In this document: positions 1 through 32,765 of the stretch, in pieces | How positions within the stretch are numbered: position 1 is the stretch's first letter | Layout: each line of letters starts with the position of its first letter | From: Nitrospirota bacterium | GTDB lineage: Bacteria; Nitrospirota; UBA9217 | DNA: 32,765 nt | Direction: 5' to 3' | Assembly (NCBI GenBank): GCA_035291685.1 | Contig: DATDRO010000293.1 | Location: 1 to 32,765 of the forward strand | Notes under the pieces: model-generated | What the model was told of the DNA's origin: nothing | The model's database searches: none | Seen by the model: the letters and a program-made list of their open reading frames with translations, nothing else | Made by a program: the position numbers and the translations under genes

Positions 1-303
1 TCCTTATTTTTTTGGGCGGCTCATCGCTCAGCCGCCTCTGCATGCCCGATAGAGTACTTGTTTTTCAATAGGTATCTCGCATTCTGAAGAAGCATTATTG
101 TATTCGACCTTCGGAGGGGGCATGCTCAACGACGGCCTTCGCGTCAGAGCCGCCCGGCACAGGGGAACGTCAGAAGCATTGACCTTGTGCTTTTTCCCAA
201 AATCCGCTGCACCCCGGTCTTCGCCAACGAATAACCGATGATAGGCATGGAAACCTTAACCTGTCAGGCTGATGAAATATTTAGCATAATAATAAAAAAA
301 CCA

Positions 304-379: not shown

Positions 380-2026
380 ATGCTGCAGGTCACGAACATA
401 GAAAAGAATTACGGCAAACAGACGCTCTTCGACGGCGTCAGCTTTACCATCAACCCGCGCGAGCGCGTGGGCCTTGTCGGCAGGAACGGCCACGGCAAGT
501 CAACGCTCTTTCGCATGATCCTGGGAGAAGAACGGCAGGACTCCGGAACGATCACCGTGCCTTCGGGATACACCATCGGCCACCTGTCCCAGCACATTCA
601 CTTTACGGAAGATACGGTCCTCAAAGAGGCTTGCCTGGCCCTTCCGGTGAACGAAGACTACCTCGACGAGACGTACAAGGCGGAGGCCATCCTGCATGGT
701 CTCGGGTTCACGAACGATGACTTTGACCGCTCGCCCTCGTCGCTGTCCGGTGGTTACCAGGTGCGCCTGAACCTTGCCAAGGTGCTCGTGTCGGAGCCGA
801 ACCTCCTGCTGCTCGACGAGCCCACGAACTACCTCGACATCATCTCGGTCCGCTGGCTCACCCAGTTCCTGCGCGCCTGGAGGAACGAGCTGATCATAAT
901 CACCCATGACCGGGACTTTATGGACGGCGTCACCACCCACACCATGATAATCCACCGCTGCAAGATGAAAAAGATCGCGGGGGGCACGCAGAAGCTCTAC
1001 GACCAGCTCCTTGTGGAAGAGGAGATCCACGAAAAGACGCGGCAGAACGACGAGAAAAAGCGCAAAGAGGTCGAGCAGTTCATCAACCGCTTCAGGGCCC
1101 AGGCGACCAAGGCAAGCGCGGTCCAGTCCCGCATCAAGGCGCTCGCTCGCCACGAAAAGCTTGAAAAGCTCGATGAGATCAGGAGTCTCGACTTTTCCTT
1201 CCGGTCGGCGCCCTTCTCCGCCAAGTGGCTCCTGAACGCGGAAGATATTTCCTTCTCTTTCTCGGGCAATGGGCCGAAGCTGATCGACGAGCTGAGTGTC
1301 GCCGTGGGCAAGAAGGACCGCATCGCCGTGATCGGCAAAAACGGCAAGGGCAAGACCACGCTGCTGAACCTGCTCTCGAACGAGCTTTCCCCCACATCCG
1401 GCGAGGTGAGACTGCATCCCAATGTCAAGCTGGCATATTTCGGCCAGACGAACATCAACCGCCTGAACCCCGCCATGACGGTGCTGCAGGAGATCATGGC
1501 CGTGCATCCGGAACACAACCACGGCATGGCGCGCGCCATCTGCGGGGCCATGATGTTCGAAGGGGACAACGCGCTCAAGAAGGTGAGCGTGCTGTCCGGG
1601 GGAGAGAAGAGCCGCGTGCTGCTGGGCAAGCTTCTGGTCTCGCCGGCCAACCTGCTGCTGCTTGACGAACCCACGAACCACCTCGACATGGAATCCATCG
1701 ACTCGCTCGTCGAGGCCATCGAGGTCTTCGACGGCGCGGTCATCATCGTGACCCATAGCGAGATGATCCTGAACGCCGTGGCTACGAAGCTGATCGTGTA
1801 CGACAACGGGATTGTCAGCGTGTTCGACGGCACATATCAGGAATTCCTCGAACGGATAGGTTGGAACGACGAGGGAGGCGTGCGCGTAAAAAAGGCAAAA
1901 AAGCAGGGCAACAACAAGGGCCTGAGCAGAAAAGACCTCAGCAAACCGCGTATTGAGAGTGTTTCTGACAGATCAAGGGTCCATGGCATGACCGCGGTCA
2001 TCGAGGAAGAGGTCGCGGCCCGATAA
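380..2026 (+). CDS. ABC-F family ATPase (two tandem ABC domains, no transmembrane domain)
   Basis: Two Walker A motifs (GRNGHGKST, GKNGKGKTT), two ABC signatures (LSGGYQ, LSGGEK), two Walker B motifs (LLLLDEPTN twice) and a charged inter-domain linker. I chose the start at MLQVTNIEK (380) over the track start at 359 because of the SD. Confidence 0.93.
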   Translation: MLQVTNIEKNYGKQTLFDGVSFTINPRERVGLVGRNGHGKSTLFRMILGEERQDSGTITVPSGYTIGHLSQHIHFTEDTVLKEACLALPVNEDYLDETYKAEAILHGLGFTNDDFDRSPSSLSGGYQVRLNLAKVLVSEPNLLLLDEPTNYLDIISVRWLTQFLRAWRNELIIITHDRDFMDGVTTHTMIIHRCKMKKIAGGTQKLYDQLLVEEEIHEKTRQNDEKKRKEVEQFINRFRAQATKASAVQSRIKALARHEKLEKLDEIRSLDFSFRSAPFSAKWLLNAEDISFSFSGNGPKLIDELSVAVGKKDRIAVIGKNGKGKTTLLNLLSNELSPTSGEVRLHPNVKLAYFGQTNINRLNPAMTVLQEIMAVHPEHNHGMARAICGAMMFEGDNALKKVSVLSGGEKSRVLLGKLLVSPANLLLLDEPTNHLDMESIDSLVEAIEVFDGAVIIVTHSEMILNAVATKLIVYDNGIVSVFDGTYQEFLERIGWNDEGGVRVKKAKKQGNNKGLSRKDLSKPRIESVSDRSRVHGMTAVIEEEVAAR

Positions 2027-4800: not shown

Positions 4801-6702
4801 TTATGCGGCCATTGCAACATCCGCCGTATCTTTTATCTGGAAGCGACCGACGGTTTCGCGAAGCTTCTTGGACTGTGTTGCAAGCTGGTCTGCCGAGGCG
4901 GAAAGCTCCGTTGAGCCTGAAGCATTCTGCTGGATCATGTCGCGTATTCGCTCGATGGACTTTACGACCTGTTCAACGCCGGCGGACTGCTCTTCAGACG
5001 AGGCGCTGATATTTTGCGTCAGATCGTTCAGCGTGGAAATGGCCTTGATGATCTGATCGCCTCCTGCCGATTGTTCGCTCGTGGCGATCCCGATCTCAGC
5101 GCTGTACTTGGCCACTTCTTCGACGGATTCCTCGATATGCGCGAGCGTGGACGCCACTTCTTTGCGGCCCTGGTCGAGCTCGTTCTGGACGCTCTGAAGG
5201 CTGGTATCCATGTGTTTGACGGCATTCTGCGCTTCTTTCTGAATGCCCCTGATGAGGTCGTTGATCTCCTTTGTGGAGACGGCAGAGCGCTCGGCAAGTT
5301 TGCGGACCTCATCCGCAACCACGGCAAAGCCGAGGCCCTGGTCACCCGCTTTTGCCGCCTCGATTGCCGCGTTGAGTGCGAGGAGGTTCGTCTGCTCGGC
5401 GATATCATCGATCACCTCAACGATGCGGCCGATGTCTTCTATCCTGACACTCAGGGTGCTGACGGTGTCCGCAACCCGGGTAATGGCGCTATTGATCTCC
5501 TCCATTCCTGCGGCGGATTTGTTCACCGCAAGCCTGCCCTTGACCACGGCATCGCGGGATTTTTGTGAGATATCGACGAGCCGTTTTACGTTTTCCGCAA
5601 CGCGCTTAATGGACACGATCATCTGTTCGATGGAGGAGGACGTTTCGTTCACTGAAGACGCCTGTGACATGGTGTTTTTGGCCACGCTCGACGTGTTTGC
5701 CGCCATCTCGTGCATGGTGGCGGTTATCTCTTCGATCGCCGCGGCCGCGCTTTCATTGTTCTTGGAAGCCTCTTCAGCCATGGAAGCAAGCTGGCCGCTG
5801 GCGGCGGAAATTTCCTGTGAGTTTTGGCGTACGCGCGACACGATATTCTGCAGGCCGGACATCATTTTCTGGAATGACTCGCCGAGGTAGTCGTGCTCAG
5901 ACCGCCTCGTCACTTCCCTGCGGAGCTCGCCCTGCGATATTTCGCCGGCGGTTTCTCCGATGTTCTTCAGATACCCTGACATATCTCCGAAGCTTTCCAT
6001 GAGTTTGCCGATCTCATCATGCGACGAGACCTCTATCTTCTGGAAGATCTCTCCCTGCGCGATCCGCCTTGAAAGCTCGGTCAGTTTTGCGATCGGGCCG
6101 AGGATGATCTTTTTCGATGAGGCATAGAGTGCCCCTCCGAGCAGGAACGCAACGACGAGATTTACGGCAAGAATATATGAGACGGTCATGGTGATCTGAC
6201 GGTTGATCTTATGATCTGACATGCCCATGGTGATAGTGCCGAGGACATCCCCCTCTATCACTATCGGAACGGCATAGTCCACCACGATGCCGGATTTTTT
6301 GATCGCCGCGATAAGTTCCGGCAGCTCGCTGTTCTTGGGCGCTGTCGCTACGGCGGCCTTGAGCCCGGGTACCTGATAGTTGATGCTTGCATAAAGAGAG
6401 GTAAGCACCTTTCCATCCGCGTCCTGGACCGTGGCGTATGCCACTTCGGGGTCCTTCGTAATATCTTTGACGATAGCATCCAGCTGGATATAGTCTTTCA
6501 TGATGAGCGGGTCCTTGCTGAGCTTCGCTATGTAAGAACCAAGGCTTTGACCCTTGTCGAGGAGGGACTGCTTGAGCATCTTTCGCTCATTCTGCGCAAT
6601 GAAGGCGCTCGCCGCGAAAGCGGTGATAACCATGATGACAAACATCACGCTCAAAAATTTGAACTGGATACTCTCGGTGAACTTTTTTTTGAATCTGAAC
6701 AT
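4801..6702 (-). CDS. methyl-accepting chemotaxis protein (TM, periplasmic sensor, TM, HAMP, MA domain)
   Basis: Conserved signalling hairpin [33 protein letters not shown], a HAMP segment ([16 protein letters not shown]...[10 protein letters not shown]) and two hydrophobic segments flanking a sensor of about 150 aa. Start set at ATG 6702 (MFRFKKK) with GGAGG 5 nt upstream. Confidence 0.93.
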
Positions 6703-6732
6703 ACGCACCTCCACCCCGCCTTCTGCATACCC

Positions 6733-6831
6733 CTATTCGATCACCCGGGTCGCCGCCTTCAGGAAAGCCGGCGGGACATCAATATGTCCTGCTTTTGCCG
6801 CTTTCATGTTTACGATCACATCGAGCTTCTT
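6733..6831 (-). pseudogene. 3'-terminal remnant (32 codons plus stop) of an ABC_sub_bind (PF04392-like) solute-binding protein gene
   Basis: Hand translation of the minus strand gives KKLDVIVNMKAAKAGHIDVPPAFLKAATRVIE*. The C-terminus of the intact gene at 11371..12330 is KDLEVVINMKTARASRIDVPSAFLKTATKVIE*, which is 21 of 32 identical and shares the same stop position. Similarity vanishes upstream of 6831. Confidence 0.6.
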
Positions 6832-12640: not shown

Positions 12641-13591
12641 CTATAATGTCTCGGACAACTCTATAATTGCTGCTGCGAGGAGCGGAAACATGATCTCGTG
12701 GTGGCCGGTGAGCGCGTACCCCTTGCCGCCTTCCTTCGTGGGGCGGTGTACAACGTTCGCATTTGGTCGATAGTGCTGAATGAAATCCATGTTGACCGTG
12801 GTAAAGTGCCGAAGCGGGTATCCGAGGTTTCGACAGAGCGTCACGGCCTTGAGGAAAATTTCCGGCAGGAGCACCGCTGACCCGAGATTTATGTAAACGC
12901 CTCCCTCGAGATCGGACACCAGCGAGCAGAACGTTCGGAAATCCTTATGAGCGGCTGCGCCGGTTGACCGGCCGTCGAACGACGGGTGCATGTGGATGAT
13001 ATCGGTCCCCAGTGCTATATGGACCGTCACGGGTATCCCCAGACGCTCACCGGCAGCGAGCAGACTCCGGTCCTTATACGGGAAGCTGCCCGCGCTGATC
13101 ATGTTGCCGACTGCCTTGCCGATCCCCTTGTCTTCGTCGGAGCTTTCCGCAGCAGCATGAACAGCCTGATTTAGCATGCTGCCGGTTTCTTCCGCCATGC
13201 CGAAAGCGCCGCTCAGGATCTCCTTGTCCACGTCTTCTGATGTCTGCCCGATAAAAGCAAGTTCAAAATCATGGATGATCCCGGCGCCGTTGAGCGAAAG
13301 GCTCGTGATGATACCCCGTTCCATCAGGTCTATGATCACCGGGCTCAACCCTACTTTGATGGGGTGGGCGCCCATCCCGAGCATGACGGGCTTCTTGTTT
13401 CTGCGAGCCTGGACCACGGCGGATGCAACTTCCTTCAGGTTTTTCGACGCGAGGATGTCCGGAAGGGCGGAAAAGAAATCTTTAAAACTCCTCCCCGGCT
13501 GATGAGGTTTGGAAAAATGATCGATCCTGACCTTACTCGGCCGATCCTTGAGGGAGTAGCGTTTTATGTGAGAGATGTCTATCTTTTTCAT
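12641..13591 (-). CDS. conserved protein, tentatively deoxyhypusine-synthase-like (DHS-like NAD-binding fold); function unknown
   Basis: A clean 316-aa ORF sits 18 nt downstream of gmhA. By eye, LGMGAHPIKVGLSPVIIDLMERGIITSLSLNGAGIIHDFE and GIPVTVHIALGTD resemble the DHS segments LGYTSNLISSGIRE...VTTAGGVEED and IPVFCPALTDG. The coding call is solid. The family call is weak. Confidence 0.55.
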   Translation of the reverse strand: MKKIDISHIKRYSLKDRPSKVRIDHFSKPHQPGRSFKDFFSALPDILASKNLKEVASAVVQARRNKKPVMLGMGAHPIKVGLSPVIIDLMERGIITSLSLNGAGIIHDFELAFIGQTSEDVDKEILSGAFGMAEETGSMLNQAVHAAAESSDEDKGIGKAVGNMISAGSFPYKDRSLLAAGERLGIPVTVHIALGTDIIHMHPSFDGRSTGAAAHKDFRTFCSLVSDLEGGVYINLGSAVLLPEIFLKAVTLCRNLGYPLRHFTTVNMDFIQHYRPNANVVHRPTKEGGKGYALTGHHEIMFPLLAAAIIELSETL

Positions 13592-27149: not shown

Positions 27150-27965
27150 ATGGTCGATATTCTCACCCATCAAGCGGAGTCCTACAGTCTTGAAACCTTC
27201 CACTGCGGGAACTGCGATCGGGATTTCCAGGCCAAGGTGATCACGTGGATCGACGTCTCCCGGGCGCCGCAGGCGCGGAAGGCGCTGCTCCGCTGGGAGT
27301 TCAATAATATTGAATGCGCCCACTGCGGGTGCCGCCACTTTGCCGGGGCCCCGTTTTTCTATGAGGATTTTGAAGAGGGGCTCCTTGTCGCCGTGTTCCC
27401 CCGGATACCGGAAAACCGCGCGAAGATCGAGGCGACCATAAAGGAAAAGTACGGCTACTACCCGGTGCTCGAGTATTTTTATGATATGACGCAGATATGG
27501 ATGCTGCTTTACTTCCAGGAACATTACAAGGCGAACAAAAATCTGCGCGCCCTCTCGAGGATCGGGAAAGGGGAGGACCGGCTGCGCAGGTTCCTTCAGT
27601 TCCTCAAAGAGGACCCGATGATGATCGACATACGAGAGAAGCTTACGGAATGTTTTTTTGGAGACGCCTCGGACGATGAGCTTATGGATATCCTGAACCA
27701 GGCAGTCTATACGCTGGAGGGAATGCTCCCCTGGCCGAAGGACAGGAGGTGCCTGTGCGGTGCGGACCTTTCGAAAGAGTTCAAATGCTGCGGCAAGCAG
27801 GTGGACATCGACAGCCACGACCATCTGCTCTCCCAACACTACATCATTTACTGTCCTCTCTGCAAAGAGTCGCTCGCGGGGGCATCGTGCGAGGCCTGCG
27901 GCCGGGTTTACACATGGAAGCTCGGCGCCGTGGAATCGTATGCAACAGCGAGTCAGGAGCGCTGA
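27150..27965 (+). CDS. CpXC domain-containing zinc-ribbon protein
   Basis: CGNC...(38 aa)...CAHCG with the intervening WIDVSRAP...ALL pattern typical of CpXC. Extra C-terminal Cys pairs are present (CLCG, CCG, CPLC, CEAC). The start is taken at ATG 27150 and is uncertain. Confidence 0.75.
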   Translation: MVDILTHQAESYSLETFHCGNCDRDFQAKVITWIDVSRAPQARKALLRWEFNNIECAHCGCRHFAGAPFFYEDFEEGLLVAVFPRIPENRAKIEATIKEKYGYYPVLEYFYDMTQIWMLLYFQEHYKANKNLRALSRIGKGEDRLRRFLQFLKEDPMMIDIREKLTECFFGDASDDELMDILNQAVYTLEGMLPWPKDRRCLCGADLSKEFKCCGKQVDIDSHDHLLSQHYIIYCPLCKESLAGASCEACGRVYTWKLGAVESYATASQER

Positions 27966-28154
27966 TGCCTGTGCGGTCGTCCCCGAAGGTCAATCCGTAC
28001 CCAGAGCGCGGCCCGGCACCGGTATGCGAATAAATACAACAGGTTGGTCTCTCCTTGAATAACCTCCTGCATTCTTTCCCGCTCTGTCCTTTTATGTTGT
28101 ACCGTGATTATGACATGAATTAACGTCACAAATGGAGGGATTCTACTCCAATAC

Positions 28155-28170
28155 GGGGTGATTTCACCCC
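28155..28170. promoter_or_regulatory. perfect inverted repeat, candidate activator (bEBP) site upstream of the sigma54 promoter
   Basis: GGGGTGA-tt-TCACCCC, centred about 70 nt upstream of the -24 element. Confidence 0.3.
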
Positions 28171-28231
28171 ACTATCATGACGCAGCTTCCCCCCTGTTTT
28201 TCAACTCATTATTAGATTGAGGAAAATTTTC

Positions 28232-28247
28232 TGGCACTCTGATTGCA
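28232..28247 (+). promoter_or_regulatory. sigma54 (RpoN) -24/-12 promoter
   Basis: cTGGCACtctgaTTGCAt compared with the consensus YTGGCACG-N4-TTGCW. All invariant positions and the spacing match. It lies about 300 nt upstream of ATG 28545. Confidence 0.6.
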
Positions 28248-28544
28248 TATTCTTATTCCGGCTAATAGTCTGCCGATGCTTCAGCATAATTATTATGAGC
28301 ACTCTTGTTGCCGAGGAATCCGCTTGACGCATTGTGCATTTTGTGATAATTTCGTGCCGTAATCAGCAGTCTGTTGAATTCATATCCTCTTGCCGGGTCC
28401 ACGATAAACAACGCATGGCAGGCATGACGGCAGGAGCGTGGATTGGGCGGGCAGCGTTTTAAAGGCCCTCGATGATCAGAGTTGATCCGGACGCTGATTT
28501 CCCCGCTTTTACCCAGCCTACATTTTTTGAACAACTAAGGAATC

Positions 28545-30632
28545 ATGGGTGCACATTCGGCTCCATTCCAGTCCGACGATATATCTCTACGCAAGGCAAG
28601 AGGGATTGTGCTTAACGCAAACAAGGCAGGCTATCTGCGAGACCTTTTCTCGAGGGAGAAATGGAAGGGTCAGTTAACGGCCCTTTCCGACACGACCGGG
28701 TTCACGCTCAGCCTTTATTCCGGAGAGGGGGGGGCCATCTTTTCCACGGCAGAACGGAACCCGCCGTGCCGGGGCCTGCTCTCATCTCCGTATTTTAAAT
28801 CACAATGCGAAACGTACTGCCGCGCCCCGCTGACGGACGTCATTCAGCAGGGAAAGCCGAAAATTTTCAAATGTTATGCGAAGATCGTGAGTTTCGCCCT
28901 GCCCATTGAATATATGAACGAGAAGGCGGCCATTCTGGGGCAGGGGTCCTTCGCCAACTACCAGGATTTTCGAGAATTCACCAGTTACCTGAGCGCCTCC
29001 GAGATGCAAGATCTTTCAGTAACAGCCCCGCTCAGTTTTACGAACGTCCGGCAGGCAAAGAATGCCTGCAGCCTCGTGGACAGCTCGTTCAGTCAGCTCC
29101 TGAAAAACACCCAGGAAACCATTACCCTGCAACAGAAGATAGACAGCCTGAAAAACCTTATCGGCAGATGGGGCGTTGATGCCCAGGACGAATTAGAGAC
29201 TTCCTACGAACACATGGCGGCCAATCTGCTCTCGCTGCTTGATGTTCACTCGATCACCATCCTTTCGCTCGACAAACTGCGGGGGGTCTATACACACCAT
29301 TACAGCCTGAAGAAGAACGGCGTCGCAACGGAGCTGTTCACGATCAGCGAGCAGGACAACATTGTTGCAGAGTTCAACAGGGGCAAACCGTTCATTGCCT
29401 CTTCGGAAGCTGTTCTCGCCTCCCGGCCGGATTTCCCGGCCGGCGTCAAGACCTTTTATTTATTTCCCATCATGGTCAACAAAAAGGTGGAGAGCATCCT
29501 CGGAATCTTTGACAATGTGCTCAAAGAGAGCGATATCTCTGTTGTCACCGCGTTCTGCAAGCAGACGGCGCTTTCCATAGAGAACCAGCGGCTGCATCGG
29601 GACCTCTACGATAAATTCGACCGGTTCGCCGCTGTTTCGGAGCTGACACAGTCAATAACCTCGATCCTGGATTATGAGACGCTGCTCAAGACGATCCTTG
29701 AAAAATCCGCCGAGCTGCTCAAGGCCGAACAGGGCTCTCTCATGCTTATCGACTATGAGACCAACGGGCTGCTCCTTGAGGCGAAGAAGGGCATGACCAA
29801 CGGCAGAACGGAAAAACTGAGAATTCGAAAGGGCGAGGGGATAGCCGGAAGGGTAGCGGAACTCGGGGAACCGTTCCTCGTCGAAAATGTCGAGATCGAC
29901 CCGAGGATCAAGCAAAAGAACCGGCTTCACTATAAGACATTGTCCTGTGTCAGCGTGCCGCTCAAGATAGAAGAACGCGTTATCGGCGTGCTTAACCTGT
30001 CGGACAAGATATCCGGAGAGGTTTTTGATGAAGAGGACCTGAAGCTCATTCAATCCTTTGCAACCCATGCCGCCATTGTTATGGAGAGAAATGTTCTGTA
30101 CAGTCAGACGGAGAAGCTTAAAAAGCTGTCGATAACGGATTCTCTCACCGGTTTGCTCAATCGAAGATACTTTCACGAGAGGCTGGAGGAAGAGGTCTCT
30201 CGTTCCGGGAGGCATGGCCGCAACCTGTCCCTTTTGATGCTCGATATAGACGGTTTTAAATATTATAATGACACCTTCGGGCACCGCATCGGCGACAAGG
30301 CGCTTAAGGTCATCTCCGATATCATATTAAATTCTGTGCGGTCAATTGATATCGTGGCCCGGTACGGGGGCGATGAATTCATGGTGATCCTGCCCGAAAC
30401 GGACAAGGCGCTGGCGATCCATATCGCCGAACGGCTGCGGACCGATGTGGCGAAGATCGTCCTGCCCACAAACAGCATGCCGGATGCGCCGCCGGTTGCC
30501 ATTACCCTGAGCATCGGGATGGTGTGCTATCCCGAGCACGGGGGAACGGCCGAGCTGCTCCTTGAGCATGTCGACAAGGCGCTCTACCTTGCGAAAAAGA
30601 GAGGGAAGAACAGGATCGAGGAGTTCTCCTAG
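28545..30632 (+). CDS. diguanylate cyclase with PocR-like, GAF, GAF and GGDEF domains
   Basis: C-terminal GGDEF domain (DSLTGLLNRRYF...RYGGDEFMVILPE) with I-site RSID five residues before GGDEF. A canonical GAF domain (LLKAEQGSLMLID...GEGIAGRVAELGEPFLVENV...VIGVLNLSDK) follows a more degenerate GAF. The N-terminal Cys-containing domain resembles PocR (tentative). Confidence 0.9.
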   Translation: MGAHSAPFQSDDISLRKARGIVLNANKAGYLRDLFSREKWKGQLTALSDTTGFTLSLYSGEGGAIFSTAERNPPCRGLLSSPYFKSQCETYCRAPLTDVIQQGKPKIFKCYAKIVSFALPIEYMNEKAAILGQGSFANYQDFREFTSYLSASEMQDLSVTAPLSFTNVRQAKNACSLVDSSFSQLLKNTQETITLQQKIDSLKNLIGRWGVDAQDELETSYEHMAANLLSLLDVHSITILSLDKLRGVYTHHYSLKKNGVATELFTISEQDNIVAEFNRGKPFIASSEAVLASRPDFPAGVKTFYLFPIMVNKKVESILGIFDNVLKESDISVVTAFCKQTALSIENQRLHRDLYDKFDRFAAVSELTQSITSILDYETLLKTILEKSAELLKAEQGSLMLIDYETNGLLLEAKKGMTNGRTEKLRIRKGEGIAGRVAELGEPFLVENVEIDPRIKQKNRLHYKTLSCVSVPLKIEERVIGVLNLSDKISGEVFDEEDLKLIQSFATHAAIVMERNVLYSQTEKLKKLSITDSLTGLLNRRYFHERLEEEVSRSGRHGRNLSLLMLDIDGFKYYNDTFGHRIGDKALKVISDIILNSVRSIDIVARYGGDEFMVILPETDKALAIHIAERLRTDVAKIVLPTNSMPDAPPVAITLSIGMVCYPEHGGTAELLLEHVDKALYLAKKRGKNRIEEFS

Positions 30633-30633
30633 C

Positions 30634-32316
30634 ATGTCATTCGGTACGCTCAACGAAAAAGATTTTTTCGGCAGAGGGGAAGAGCTGTCTGACCTGTACC
30701 GCCGGGCCCTCCAGGCTGAACAGGGCGCCGGACAGAGCGTCTTTCTGTCGGGCACCAGGGGCGTCGGCAAGACGGAACTCCTTAAACAGTTCTTCAGCCA
30801 TCTGTTCTGGAAACAGGACCGGGTGGTCCCTTTCTACTACTCGGTCAATAACGCGCTCCTTTCCGCGGAAGATTTTTCGAGGGACTATGTAACGCGTTAC
30901 ATCTGCCAGAGACTCGCTTTTGAAAAAAAGGAGCAGGCCCTTTTACATCTCGACGGATTATCGATCGAAGGGCTGTCTTCGCTCGTGGAAGGAAGCAGGG
31001 CCGCGTGGGCGCGCGATATCCTTGACCGATATGCCCGGAACTCCGGCAAGCCCGTCGATTCACTCCGCGTCGCGCTCGGCGCGCCGCACCAATCAAGCCT
31101 CTCGAGCGGAAATCCCGCGGTGGTCCTGATAGACGAGTTTCAAAAGCTGAAAAATCTCCATATCAGCGGCGCCGTTGACCCTCAACTGGTCTCGCTGTTC
31201 GAGGTCCCGCTCTCGTTCAAAGGGGCGCTGCACGTGATCACGGGAAATGAGGCCGAGATCGAGGAGATGCCCGTCTCAGGAGGTCTCTCGCGGGTAACGG
31301 TTCCTCCGCTCGGGTCCGAGGATGCCGCTCAGCAGTTTCTCTCGCTGCTCCGCGCATTCGGGATATCCGTGAATGCCGTGCCGGACGCGGTTGTTCAGCA
31401 TCTGGGGGGAAATCCGTTCTACCTGCGGTGCCTGGCGACGGCCGCGGGACTCAAGAAAAGCCGCGAAGAAAAAGAGTTCTGGCTTGCCTACCTCCAGGAA
31501 ATCACGAACGGGAATATGTATCTCTATTGGTCATCGGTCCTGAAGAACTTTTTTCCCGATATGGGCCTGAGGAGAAACGTTGTCGAAATAACGTACAAGA
31601 TGTTCCATACCCGGGAGTCATTGACCCAGGAGAAAATCACCGAGGCCTTTCCCGCGGGCGGTATGCATGCCGAGGCGATCGTTCGCGCCCTTCACCGCAC
31701 GGGTTTCATCCAGGGCGAGTTCGGGGTTTTCAGGGCGTCCGAGGACAAGGTGGTAACGGATTTTATCAACTGCCTGTACATGAGAGTGATCCTCGGGATG
31801 GCCCCGTATGACATCGAGAAGGGGTTCCTTGAACAGCAGTCGGGAGAGACGACCGAGAGAAGGACGGCGTTCGAAATGGTCCTGCCGATGACCAGAGAGG
31901 CGGAGCTTGTAGCCGCGCGGTGTCTCGAACAGATCGGCAAGAACCTGCGGATCCATGAAGAAGCGATCGGCCAGCTTCAGATAGCGGTCATCGAGGCCTG
32001 TATCAATGCCCTTGAGCACAGCAAGGGGGGGGAGAAGAAGATCTATTTGAGCTTTGACGTTGCGGAAGACCGCATGGAGGTTTCGATTGAAAGCTCCGGA
32101 CGGGAATTCGTGGTACAGGAGACGGGGGAACCCTTCATCGGGAAGAAACTCAGGGAAGATTTCGGGAGGGGATGGGGCGTAAAGCTCATGAAGCGTTTTA
32201 CGGATTCCGTACGATTCGAAAAGACCGGCCGCGGGACAAAAGTGATCCTGGTGAAGAACCTTCCGAAAACGGAAACGGCTGGTGTTTATAAGGAGGGCGG
32301 GGCAAACGGTGAGTAA
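30634..32316 (+). CDS. fusion protein: AAA+ ATPase (Arch_ATPase/AAA_16-like) plus RsbW/SpoIIAB-type serine kinase (HATPase_c_2) domain
   Basis: The N-terminus has FFGRGEELSDL...GTRGVGKTELL (Walker A, nt 30751-30774) and VVLIDEFQKL (Walker B). The C-terminus has N-box IAVIEACINALEHS, IESSGREF and GRGWGVKLMKRFTD. The ATG lies 1 nt after the cyclase stop, with GAGGAG upstream. Confidence 0.85.
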   Translation: MSFGTLNEKDFFGRGEELSDLYRRALQAEQGAGQSVFLSGTRGVGKTELLKQFFSHLFWKQDRVVPFYYSVNNALLSAEDFSRDYVTRYICQRLAFEKKEQALLHLDGLSIEGLSSLVEGSRAAWARDILDRYARNSGKPVDSLRVALGAPHQSSLSSGNPAVVLIDEFQKLKNLHISGAVDPQLVSLFEVPLSFKGALHVITGNEAEIEEMPVSGGLSRVTVPPLGSEDAAQQFLSLLRAFGISVNAVPDAVVQHLGGNPFYLRCLATAAGLKKSREEKEFWLAYLQEITNGNMYLYWSSVLKNFFPDMGLRRNVVEITYKMFHTRESLTQEKITEAFPAGGMHAEAIVRALHRTGFIQGEFGVFRASEDKVVTDFINCLYMRVILGMAPYDIEKGFLEQQSGETTERRTAFEMVLPMTREAELVAARCLEQIGKNLRIHEEAIGQLQIAVIEACINALEHSKGGEKKIYLSFDVAEDRMEVSIESSGREFVVQETGEPFIGKKLREDFGRGWGVKLMKRFTDSVRFEKTGRGTKVILVKNLPKTETAGVYKEGGANGE

Positions 32317-32662
32317 TTTTTCTCTTTCTTTCAAGACGGATCAGGATGTCGTGGTCATGGCCCCGAAGGGATATGTCAACGACCTCGGGGCCGTGAGCCT
32401 CGAACAGGCAAGCGAGCAGGTCCTCGACCATGGGCTCAAAAAACTTGTTGTAAACTTTTCGGATATGCAGTATATAAACAGCATCGGGGCCTCCGTTTTC
32501 ATCGGTATCGTCCAAAGGACCATTGAGAACGAAGGGCAGCTCTGTTTTACCAATATGAAAAAGGTCCATCAAGACGTCTTTGAGATGCTGGGCATTACAA
32601 AACACGTAAGGGTCTTTAAGGACGAACGGGACGCCCTCAGTTTTTTGAATGAGAATGGTTAA
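32309..32662 (+). CDS. STAS domain anti-sigma-factor antagonist (SpoIIAA/RsbV family)
   Basis: VVVMAPKGYVN......LVVNFSDMQYINSIGASVFIGI...FTNMKKVHQDVFEMLGITKHVRVF, with the conserved phosphorylatable Ser context (INSIG). The GTG start at 32309 overlaps the upstream stop by 8 nt. AAGGAGG lies at 32290-32296. Confidence 0.85.
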   Translation: MSNFSLSFKTDQDVVVMAPKGYVNDLGAVSLEQASEQVLDHGLKKLVVNFSDMQYINSIGASVFIGIVQRTIENEGQLCFTNMKKVHQDVFEMLGITKHVRVFKDERDALSFLNENG

Positions 32663-32765
32663 CTGCTCAGGTCAGCCGTTCGCTCAGTCGCTTAGCGTGC
32701 TATAAGTCCGTGAAATTCGAGAGGGTCGGAGTTTTTGTCCATAGCGCTTACATTGGTAAAGCATT

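Follow-up and report, generated by a model that had tools for sequence, protein, structure and literature searches.

A kinase-NTPase fusion and STAS protein encoded with cyclic di-GMP enzymes in Nitrospirota: a candidate sigma-less phospho-switch with a conserved HD-GYP neighbor

What does an RsbW-type kinase act on when no sigma factor gene lies beside it? The question is raised by the end of a 32,765-nucleotide (nt) contig of a Nitrospirota bacterium (DATDRO010000293.1, assembly GCA_035291685.1; the whole stretch is called the window here), where three consecutive genes on the forward strand encode a PocR/GAF/GAF/GGDEF diguanylate cyclase (g1), a nucleoside triphosphatase (NTPase) module fused to an RsbW-type kinase domain (g2), and a small STAS protein (g3). 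A preliminary description made from the sequence alone had read these genes as a complete unit ending at 32662, in which the kinase/STAS pair gates synthesis of cyclic di-GMP (c-di-GMP) by the upstream cyclase. By extending the contig and comparing related loci, we find a fourth gene, g4, that encodes an HD-GYP protein and is the constant neighbor of the STAS gene. Our best explanation of the locus, to which we give about an even chance of being right, is a four-gene c-di-GMP turnover operon that would be run by a sigma-less phospho-switch, with the HD-GYP protein as its conserved output.

A four-gene cluster and its three forms

The three window genes, read directly as open reading frames (ORFs), and their junctions are exactly as first described (Table 1). 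The TAG stop of g1 (30630-30632) is followed by a single c at 30633 and the ATG of g2 (30634-30636), a 1-nt gap, and the GTG start of g3 at 32309 overlaps the TAA of g2 (32314-32316) by 8 nt. Relatives typically have the same 1-nt gap and 8-nt overlap, so the packing is conserved and no chance feature. The GTG start of g3 is supported by the alignment of residues 5-16 with the first strand of SpoIIAA and by orthologues that match from residue 1-3, and for g1 some gene calls place the start about 21 codons further downstream, a possible alternative. Pfam and NCBIfam annotation upheld the initial domain calls, among them the fusion of NTPase and kinase and a phosphorylatable serine in STAS.

An identical g2 protein is encoded on 20 metagenome contigs, and six of these (L001-L006) extend the window. 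On the extended contig g4 (411 amino acids) starts 179 nt after g3, 76 nt past the window end, and is followed by convergent ABC-transporter genes; the cluster thus has four genes and not the three proposed at the outset. The g4 protein consists of a GAF-like N-terminal half and an HD-GYP domain (Pfam HD_5, E 6e-37) that matches the corresponding domain in an NCBIfam family of c-di-GMP phosphodiesterases. Its motifs LLHDIGK and HHERMDGSGYP are present and the catalytic set H, HD, HHExxDGxGYP, D is intact, and the HD-GYP motifs are kept in 47 of 47 sequences; by its motifs, g4 is a predicted HD-GYP c-di-GMP phosphodiesterase. In the nearest relatives, L080 and L081, which share the synteny and have g2 proteins 91% and 86% identical, a gap of 1 nt separates the stop of g3 from the start of g4.

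A scan of one genome per species gave 65 loci with g2 identities of 28%-61%, and we compared the ORFs called in these loci with the four proteins. Most are from Nitrospirota, including Thermodesulfovibrionia, with some from Syntrophus, Desulfobacteraceae and other 'delta' lineages. Form A (about 35 loci, at least 40% identity) is g1-g2-g3-g4 with junctions of a 1-nt gap, an 8-nt overlap and a 1-nt gap, and its flanks are unrelated between lineages. Form B (17 loci, 33-37% identity) is g2-g3-g4 only and sits between housekeeping genes, for example FtsK-LolA and TsaD. Form C has just g1-g2, flanked by a fumarase gene and a convergent alanine racemase gene, and comprises 10 loci at 28-33% identity (L046, L048, L059, L062, L064, L066, L067, L069, L070 and L073). 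Flanking genes are housekeeping genes that depend on the lineage (FtsK/LolA/TsaD, fumarase/alanine racemase or ParC/CpXC/ABC), and the module therefore moves as a unit.

The linkage within the module is uneven. STAS follows g2 in 50 of the 65 loci, and an HD-GYP gene follows STAS in 48 of the 49 that could be judged, the exception being L018. A g1-type cyclase lies upstream in 31 of 33 judgeable form A loci, in none of the 14 judgeable form B loci and in all ten form C loci. An exhaustive search for remote g2 relatives returned 1130 matches, 125 of them at E < 1e-30. Four relatives of 590-850 amino acids all have STAS after g2, with HD-GYP next in the three whose next gene is annotated, and one has a PocR-GAF-GGDEF gene upstream; the remote locus L078 is kinase-STAS-HD-GYP with no adjacent cyclase. 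Genome mining therefore agrees with the earlier expectation that the cluster is conserved elsewhere as a unit, in the shape of a tetrad, and the c-di-GMP-linked module is found widely in Nitrospirota, Thermodesulfovibrionia among them, as well as in some lineages of the Desulfobacterota type.

Several loci depart from these patterns. In L018 (8703-9348, form A) the STAS protein is cut to 74 amino acids (residues 14-69) and no HD-GYP gene precedes the convergent ABC genes; the downstream half of the operon seems to have decayed there. L078 (5182-5505) and L079 (1689-2012) have a second STAS gene (107 amino acids) about 500 nt upstream of a distant 588-amino-acid g2 relative, in addition to the downstream STAS-HD-GYP pair. 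In L054 (8748-11676) and L060 (8744-11514) the G2 box of a g2 paralogue is altered and there is no STAS gene; the genes that come next encode a HAMP/HisKA histidine kinase and a sigma-54-activating response regulator, which suggests that the NTPase-kinase hub has been rewired there to a two-component system.

Predicted activities of the four proteins

We compared an AlphaFold2 model of g2 (39 homologues, mean predicted local distance difference test score 83) with the PDB using Foldseek. In the model, residues 1-405 are laid out as a nucleotide-binding domain, a helical domain and a winged helix and resemble the archaeal ATPase_2 proteins 2qen/2fna (PAB2304, SSO1545), Cdc6/Orc1 and the NB-ARC module of NLR/STAND proteins. 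Residues 410-545 superpose on Bacillus subtilis RsbW (6m36) with a TM score of 0.9 and a root-mean-square deviation of 1.6-2.0 Å, and NCBIfam gives weak matches to the RsbW and SpoIIAB equivalogs. Invariant residues include Walker A G40xxGxGKT, Walker B hhhhD[ED] (D167), N box E454/N458/H462 and G2 box G513xG515. The layout of the N-terminal module is that of STAND, Orc/Cdc6 and archaeal ATPase_2 proteins (2qen, 2fna, 2qby, NLR NB-ARC), with Walker A and B intact, whereas g2 differs from classical STAND proteins in having neither a C-terminal repeat sensor (TPR, WD40, LRR) nor a DNA-binding output, its putative effector being a GHKL protein kinase domain. The insert of about 200 amino acids in g2 relatives of 730-850 amino acids contains no Pfam domain, PP2C included. 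A role of g2 in anti-phage defense was considered and rejected: PADLOC gave a marginal match for g2 (E 3e-4) and generic HD matches for g4.

The g3 protein is a single STAS domain (Pfam E 1e-12) that also matches TIGR00377, the anti-sigma-antagonist superfamily. At the putative acceptor position, Ser or Thr is found in all 49 aligned sequences (the window and 48 orthologues) within the motif I-N-[ST]-I-G, the pattern of a STAS antagonist with a predicted phosphorylatable Ser/Thr in a conserved loop.

Kinase boxes and STAS vary together. All 48 aligned STAS-bearing loci keep the N box (E..N..H/Y), E-x-x-G and G-x-G, and the N-box E/N/H, E486, G489 and the GxG of the G2 box are strictly conserved wherever STAS is present. 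In form C (10 of 10) the N-box Asn/His is replaced and the whole G2 box is gone, with Walker A and B intact and the cyclase adjacent; judged by these boxes, form C g2 appears to be a natural kinase-dead version of the hub protein. Boxes that are kept with STAS and lost without it link the kinase domain to the STAS protein, and the persistence of Walker A and B beside the cyclase links the NTPase half to g1. Together with the Ser/Thr acceptor, this co-variation is the strongest indirect evidence that the g2 kinase would work on g3, and the form C proteins point to a distinct connection between the NTPase half and the cyclase.

The same proteins could be read in another way, with g2 inactive as a kinase and serving as a nucleotide-dependent scaffold or pseudokinase that assembles cyclase, STAS and HD-GYP, and with STAS acting by binding alone. 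Consistent with this, the G1-box Asp lies off its canonical position, the operon has no phosphatase gene, and the form C protein persists with a decayed GHKL domain, so the rest of g2 should have a kinase-independent role. This scaffold model is nonetheless quite improbable in our view, as it sits poorly with the strict conservation of the N-box residues, E486, G489 and GxG alongside STAS. The restriction of the STAS acceptor to Ser/Thr and the presence of an adjacent PP2C gene in eight loci are likewise what real phosphotransfer would predict.

The g1 protein carries the sequence run RSID-IVARY-GGDEF (residues 599-612), which places the RxxD I-site five residues upstream of the active-site motif, and it matches TIGR00254 (E 1e-53). 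GGDEF and RxxD are kept in 41 of 41 orthologues, so that by motif g1 is a predicted active diguanylate cyclase with an I-site. A profile of residues 185-368 matches the canonical GAF profile in hhalign (96% probability, E 4e-9), and with the Pfam matches this confirms the PocR-like/GAF/GAF/GGDEF architecture with intact motifs that had been proposed for g1. Two form A cyclase orthologues of about 510 amino acids, in L014 (5473-6999) and L029 (5460-6998), are without the first, divergent GAF and match g1 residues ~23-219 and 358/377-695, and in L011 g1 is reduced to a 113-amino-acid remnant.

What the proposed switch may act on

The contig extension ruled out both a sigma factor and a PP2C gene immediately downstream: neither lies beside the cluster on the extended contig. 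We surveyed two genes on each side of every cluster (223 proteins, Pfam) and found no recurrent sigma factor among the neighbors of the 65 loci, in line with the preliminary description's view of the module as sigma-less. In three loci of one lineage (L007, L024 and L040), the exception in this survey and among L001-L009, an RpoD-like gene with region 1.2 lies 1.2 kilobases (kb) upstream.

A classical partner switch, in which g2 would be the anti-sigma factor for an unlinked sigma factor and the c-di-GMP genes would share the operon only for co-expression, is on this evidence very unlikely. The C-terminal domain of g2 does match RsbW/SpoIIAB by sequence and fold, sigma and anti-sigma genes are not always adjacent, and one lineage has the sigma-70-family gene just mentioned. 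However, the other loci have no adjacent sigma gene, and the gene of the exceptional lineage, with its region 1.2, resembles RpoD and not SigB/SigF. The kinase is also tethered to a 400-residue NTPase module, and we know of no anti-sigma factor with such a module. The tight translational coupling to HD-GYP and cyclase genes, conserved across 28-90% identity, argues for a physical complex and against an unlinked sigma factor. Supporting the earlier proposal that the module is wired to c-di-GMP without a sigma factor, its conserved neighbors are the HD-GYP protein and the cyclase.

The phosphatase is a different matter. A jackhmmer search seeded with the adjacent PP2C of L055 found no PP2C anywhere in the window. 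Eight of the 65 loci, on two separate branches, have an adjacent PP2C gene, all of the Stp1/IreP type: five are 'delta' form B loci (convergent or divergent) and three are form A loci (same strand, after g4). Because PP2C is adjacent in these related loci, a PP2C partner probably exists and is usually unlinked. The initial report of no PP2C thus holds for the extended contig as well, but probably not for the system as a whole. In one form B locus, L047, a dual-specificity (DSP/PTP-type) phosphatase gene (5694-6812) lies directly upstream of g2 and could be an alternative phosphatase partner.

In our best explanation, g2 would be the hub, with its C-terminal RsbW-type kinase domain phosphorylating Ser58 of g3 and a PP2C phosphatase encoded elsewhere reversing the reaction, and the phosphorylation state of g3 would set the activity of the GAF-like/HD-GYP protein g4. 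Free STAS might bind g4, as HsbA and SiaC bind cyclases, or STAS might drive g4 off the kinase domain in the way that RsbV releases sigma-B from RsbW. The Orc/STAND-like NTPase module of g2 would serve as a nucleotide-dependent input or assembly module and, in the window lineage, would also be linked to g1, the PocR/GAF/GAF cyclase. One complex would thereby coordinate how c-di-GMP is made and broken down, and in this organism the operon would be transcribed from a sigma-54 promoter. Gene content, motif integrity, fold assignments and comparative linkage are the direct observations from which this proposal is built.

The preliminary description had instead placed the output on g1. In such a model, free STAS would bind the cyclase and activate or inhibit its GGDEF domain in the manner of HsbA-HsbD or SiaC-SiaD, and the HD-GYP gene would be merely co-transcribed. 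Translational coupling of g1, g2 and g3 here and in about 31 related loci is consistent with this, as are the published cases of STAS-like proteins that bind cyclases (PMC5085249, PMC8457831), and the helical GAF-GGDEF linker of g1 could, to judge from its sequence, be a docking stalk. However, 14 judgeable loci and the remote L078 are kinase-STAS-HD-GYP without an adjacent cyclase, and in the ten form C loci cyclase and g2 occur together, with STAS missing and the kinase domain decayed. Whatever links g2 to the cyclase can therefore do without STAS, whose constant neighbor is HD-GYP (48 of 49). Linkage thus favors the HD-GYP protein over the cyclase as the partner of the kinase/STAS pair, and we consider the cyclase-gating model unlikely.

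An extended form of the HD-GYP model, possible but doubtful, is that nucleotide-gated g2 switches synthesis and breakdown in opposite directions from a single complex, its NTPase half directly controlling the cyclase, or being controlled by it, without phosphorylation and its kinase half acting through phospho-STAS on the HD-GYP protein. The first of these links is what the cyclase-g2 loci imply, since g2 there has a dead kinase domain.

Several points weigh against the four-gene phospho-switch as we propose it. No phosphatase was found in the 32.7-kb window or on the extended contig, and in the window lineage an insertion of 178 nt separates g4 from g3. The G1-box Asp of the RsbW 'ADEG' motif aligns with the variable S487 of g2, with the invariant E486 one residue earlier, which leaves ATP binding and kinase activity uncertain. 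Linkage is silent on whether STAS or the kinase domain contacts the HD-GYP protein, and equally on whether the cyclase is a target of g2 or feeds a signal to it. It also means adjacency: cyclase-less loci may have a g1-like cyclase, and STAS-less loci a STAS gene, elsewhere in the genome. Phosphorylation, every protein-protein contact and the direction of regulation are read from sequence and gene context.

Several known systems resemble the module in part. SiaC belongs to a different family (DUF1987) from g3, which is a Pfam STAS protein, and Moorella thermoacetica has a stressosome-linked diguanylate cyclase. In the HsbR-HsbA-HsbD system of Pseudomonas aeruginosa the STAS protein HsbA, with phosphorylation set by an RsbW-type kinase, acts on the cyclase HsbD; HsbR, which the HptB phosphorelay feeds, fuses a response regulator with PP2C and kinase domains, and HsbA also acts on FlgM and RpoS circuits (PMC5085249; PMC6482189). 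The present module likewise combines STAS and an RsbW-type kinase, and its predicted output is a c-di-GMP enzyme and not a sigma factor alone. Unlike HsbR, the g2 kinase is fused to an Orc/STAND-like NTPase and has no Response_reg or PP2C domain (Pfam), and whereas HsbA acts on a cyclase, the conserved neighbor of the g3 STAS is an HD-GYP phosphodiesterase. This precedent, cited in the preliminary description, is a close known system, and SiaABCD, which went unmentioned there, is equally close. In SiaABCD, also of P. aeruginosa, one operon encodes the kinase SiaB, the phospho-acceptor SiaC, the cyclase SiaD and the PP2C phosphatase SiaA, and unphosphorylated SiaC binds and activates SiaD with no sigma factor involved (PMC7647112, PMC8457831). 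The g1-g4 operon differs in having no PP2C gene, SiaB is stand-alone, and the SiaABCD operon is without a phosphodiesterase; g1 scores 162 bits against the NCBIfam SiaD cut-off of 290, through its GGDEF domain only.

The resemblance to RsbW-RsbV and SpoIIAB-SpoIIAA (PDB 6m36, 1th8) extends to the kinase fold and most of its motifs (TM 0.9 to RsbW), the STAS fold and the correspondence of Ser58 with SpoIIAA Ser58. Unlike these Bacillus partner switches, no sigma target is seen beside the cluster, the kinase is the C-terminal domain of a 560-amino-acid fusion with a displaced G1-box Asp, and the STAS motif of the g3 family is N-[ST]-I-G where Bacillus has D-S-S-G. Stressosome modules lie beside diguanylate cyclases in Vibrio brasiliensis (PMC4976288). 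As with these stressosome-linked cyclases, STAS-based phospho-signaling is encoded here beside c-di-GMP enzymes and not a sigma factor, but in contrast to the multi-STAS complexes of RsbR/RsbS/RsbT there is one small STAS, no RsbR/RsbS pair, and a kinase with its own oligomerization-type NTPase. What is distinctive here is the kinase-NTPase fusion, HD-GYP as the constant STAS neighbor, and the lack of a built-in PP2C or receiver domain.

In the open-access literature we found no description of this gene combination (STAS with HD-GYP; HATPase_c_2 with STAS and GGDEF; partner switching with a phosphodiesterase) and no comparable partner control of an HD-GYP phosphodiesterase. A central open question in c-di-GMP signaling is how the numerous cyclases and phosphodiesterases of a cell act specifically, and to our knowledge phospho-dependent partner control of cyclases is known from only a few Pseudomonas systems. 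In a compact, conserved form, the module puts one kinase/STAS switch together with an enzyme predicted to make c-di-GMP and another predicted to degrade it, and its naturally dissected variants (kinase-STAS-HD-GYP only; cyclase-NTPase with a decayed kinase) make the wiring directly testable. If the extended form of the model holds, no earlier partner switch would have had a c-di-GMP phosphodiesterase as its target, and g2 would be the first case in bacterial second-messenger control of a STAND-type NTPase module driving a protein kinase. The module would also add a protein kinase as a new effector type to the Orc/STAND-like NTPases.

Promoter, g3-g4 insertion and other features

The -24/-12 element upstream of g1 (Table 1) is the only zero-mismatch sigma-54 match in the 32.7-kb window, and its GG and GC are kept in L080 and L081, where the spacer varies. 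Remoter relatives have a relaxed match in only 6 of 40 loci, at inconsistent positions, so sigma-54 control is no family property, though likely here. We accordingly dropped the element as a family-wide feature, and the sigma54-dependent expression first proposed, backed by a perfect element and the two nearest relatives, is narrowed to this lineage. Two palindromes upstream of the element are both kept in L080 and L081 while the flanking sequence diverges, and are candidate sites for an enhancer-binding protein; no gene for such an activator is among the annotated window ORFs. A search of the 580-nt leader (27900-28620) for riboswitches and known RNAs gave no Rfam match at E <= 1. Within the g1 leader, a 90-amino-acid ORF on the reverse strand (28262-28534), called as a gene in one metagenome annotation (L004) and without a Pfam match, is probably spurious.

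The insertion of 178 nt in the window lineage lies exactly at the g3-g4 junction and is absent in L080 and L081. It is bounded by 15-bp terminal inverted repeats, GCTCAGGTCAGCCGT...ACGGCTGACCTGAGC, with the left arm starting at 32665, and its fold is a structure with a long stem (-63 kcal/mol, z -2.3). Searches found no second copy in the window and no Rfam match at E <= 1. The insertion resembles a small mobile or repeat element and would uncouple the translation of g4.

Table 1. Features of the g1-g3 region in window coordinates, with domain boundaries and supporting evidence
Feature	Residues	Window position	Strand	Basis or remark
Palindrome GGAGGGATTCTACTCC		28134-28149	+	palindromes 62-98 nt upstream of the -24 element
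Palindrome GGGGTGATTTCACCCC		28155-28170	+	palindromes 62-98 nt upstream of the -24 element
Sigma-54-type -24/-12 element TGGCAC-N5-TTGC		28232-28246	+	~300 nt upstream of the g1 start
g1	695 aa	28545-30632	+	ORF
g1 PocR	33-153	28641-29003	+	Pfam E 1e-8
g1 first GAF, divergent	~217-350	29193-29594	+	profile-profile (hhalign)
g1 second GAF	376-514	29670-30086	+	Pfam E 1e-22 to 9e-25
g1 GGDEF domain	530-690	30132-30614	+	Pfam E 1e-48
g1 I-site RSID (RxxD)	599-602	30339-30350	+	motif
g1 GGDEF motif	608-612	30366-30380	+	motif
g2	560 aa	30634-32316	+	ORF
g2 P-loop NTPase, helical and winged-helix module	1-405	30634-31848	+	Pfam, fold
g2 AAA_16/ATPase_2	11-205		+	Pfam
g2 Walker A		30751-30774	+	motif
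g2 Walker B		31120-31137	+	motif
g2 RsbW-fold GHKL Ser kinase domain	410-545	31861-32268	+	Pfam, fold
g2 HATPase_c_2	427-541		+	Pfam E 6e-16
g2 N box		31993-32019	+	motif
g2 E-S-S-G		32089-32100	+	motif
g2 G2 box		32164-32178	+	motif
g3	117 aa	32309-32662	+	ORF
g3 putative phospho-acceptor	Ser58	32480-32482	+	aligns with SpoIIAA Ser58
First 103 nt of the g3-g4 insertion		32663-32765 (on in L003:4860-5038)	+	alignment with L080, L081

Elsewhere in the window, a 316-amino-acid ORF on the reverse strand (12641-13591) matches no Pfam family at E <= 1e-5, and its neighbors are ordinary chromosomal genes for a SIS-domain protein, an rRNA adenine dimethylase and an ABC substrate-binding protein.

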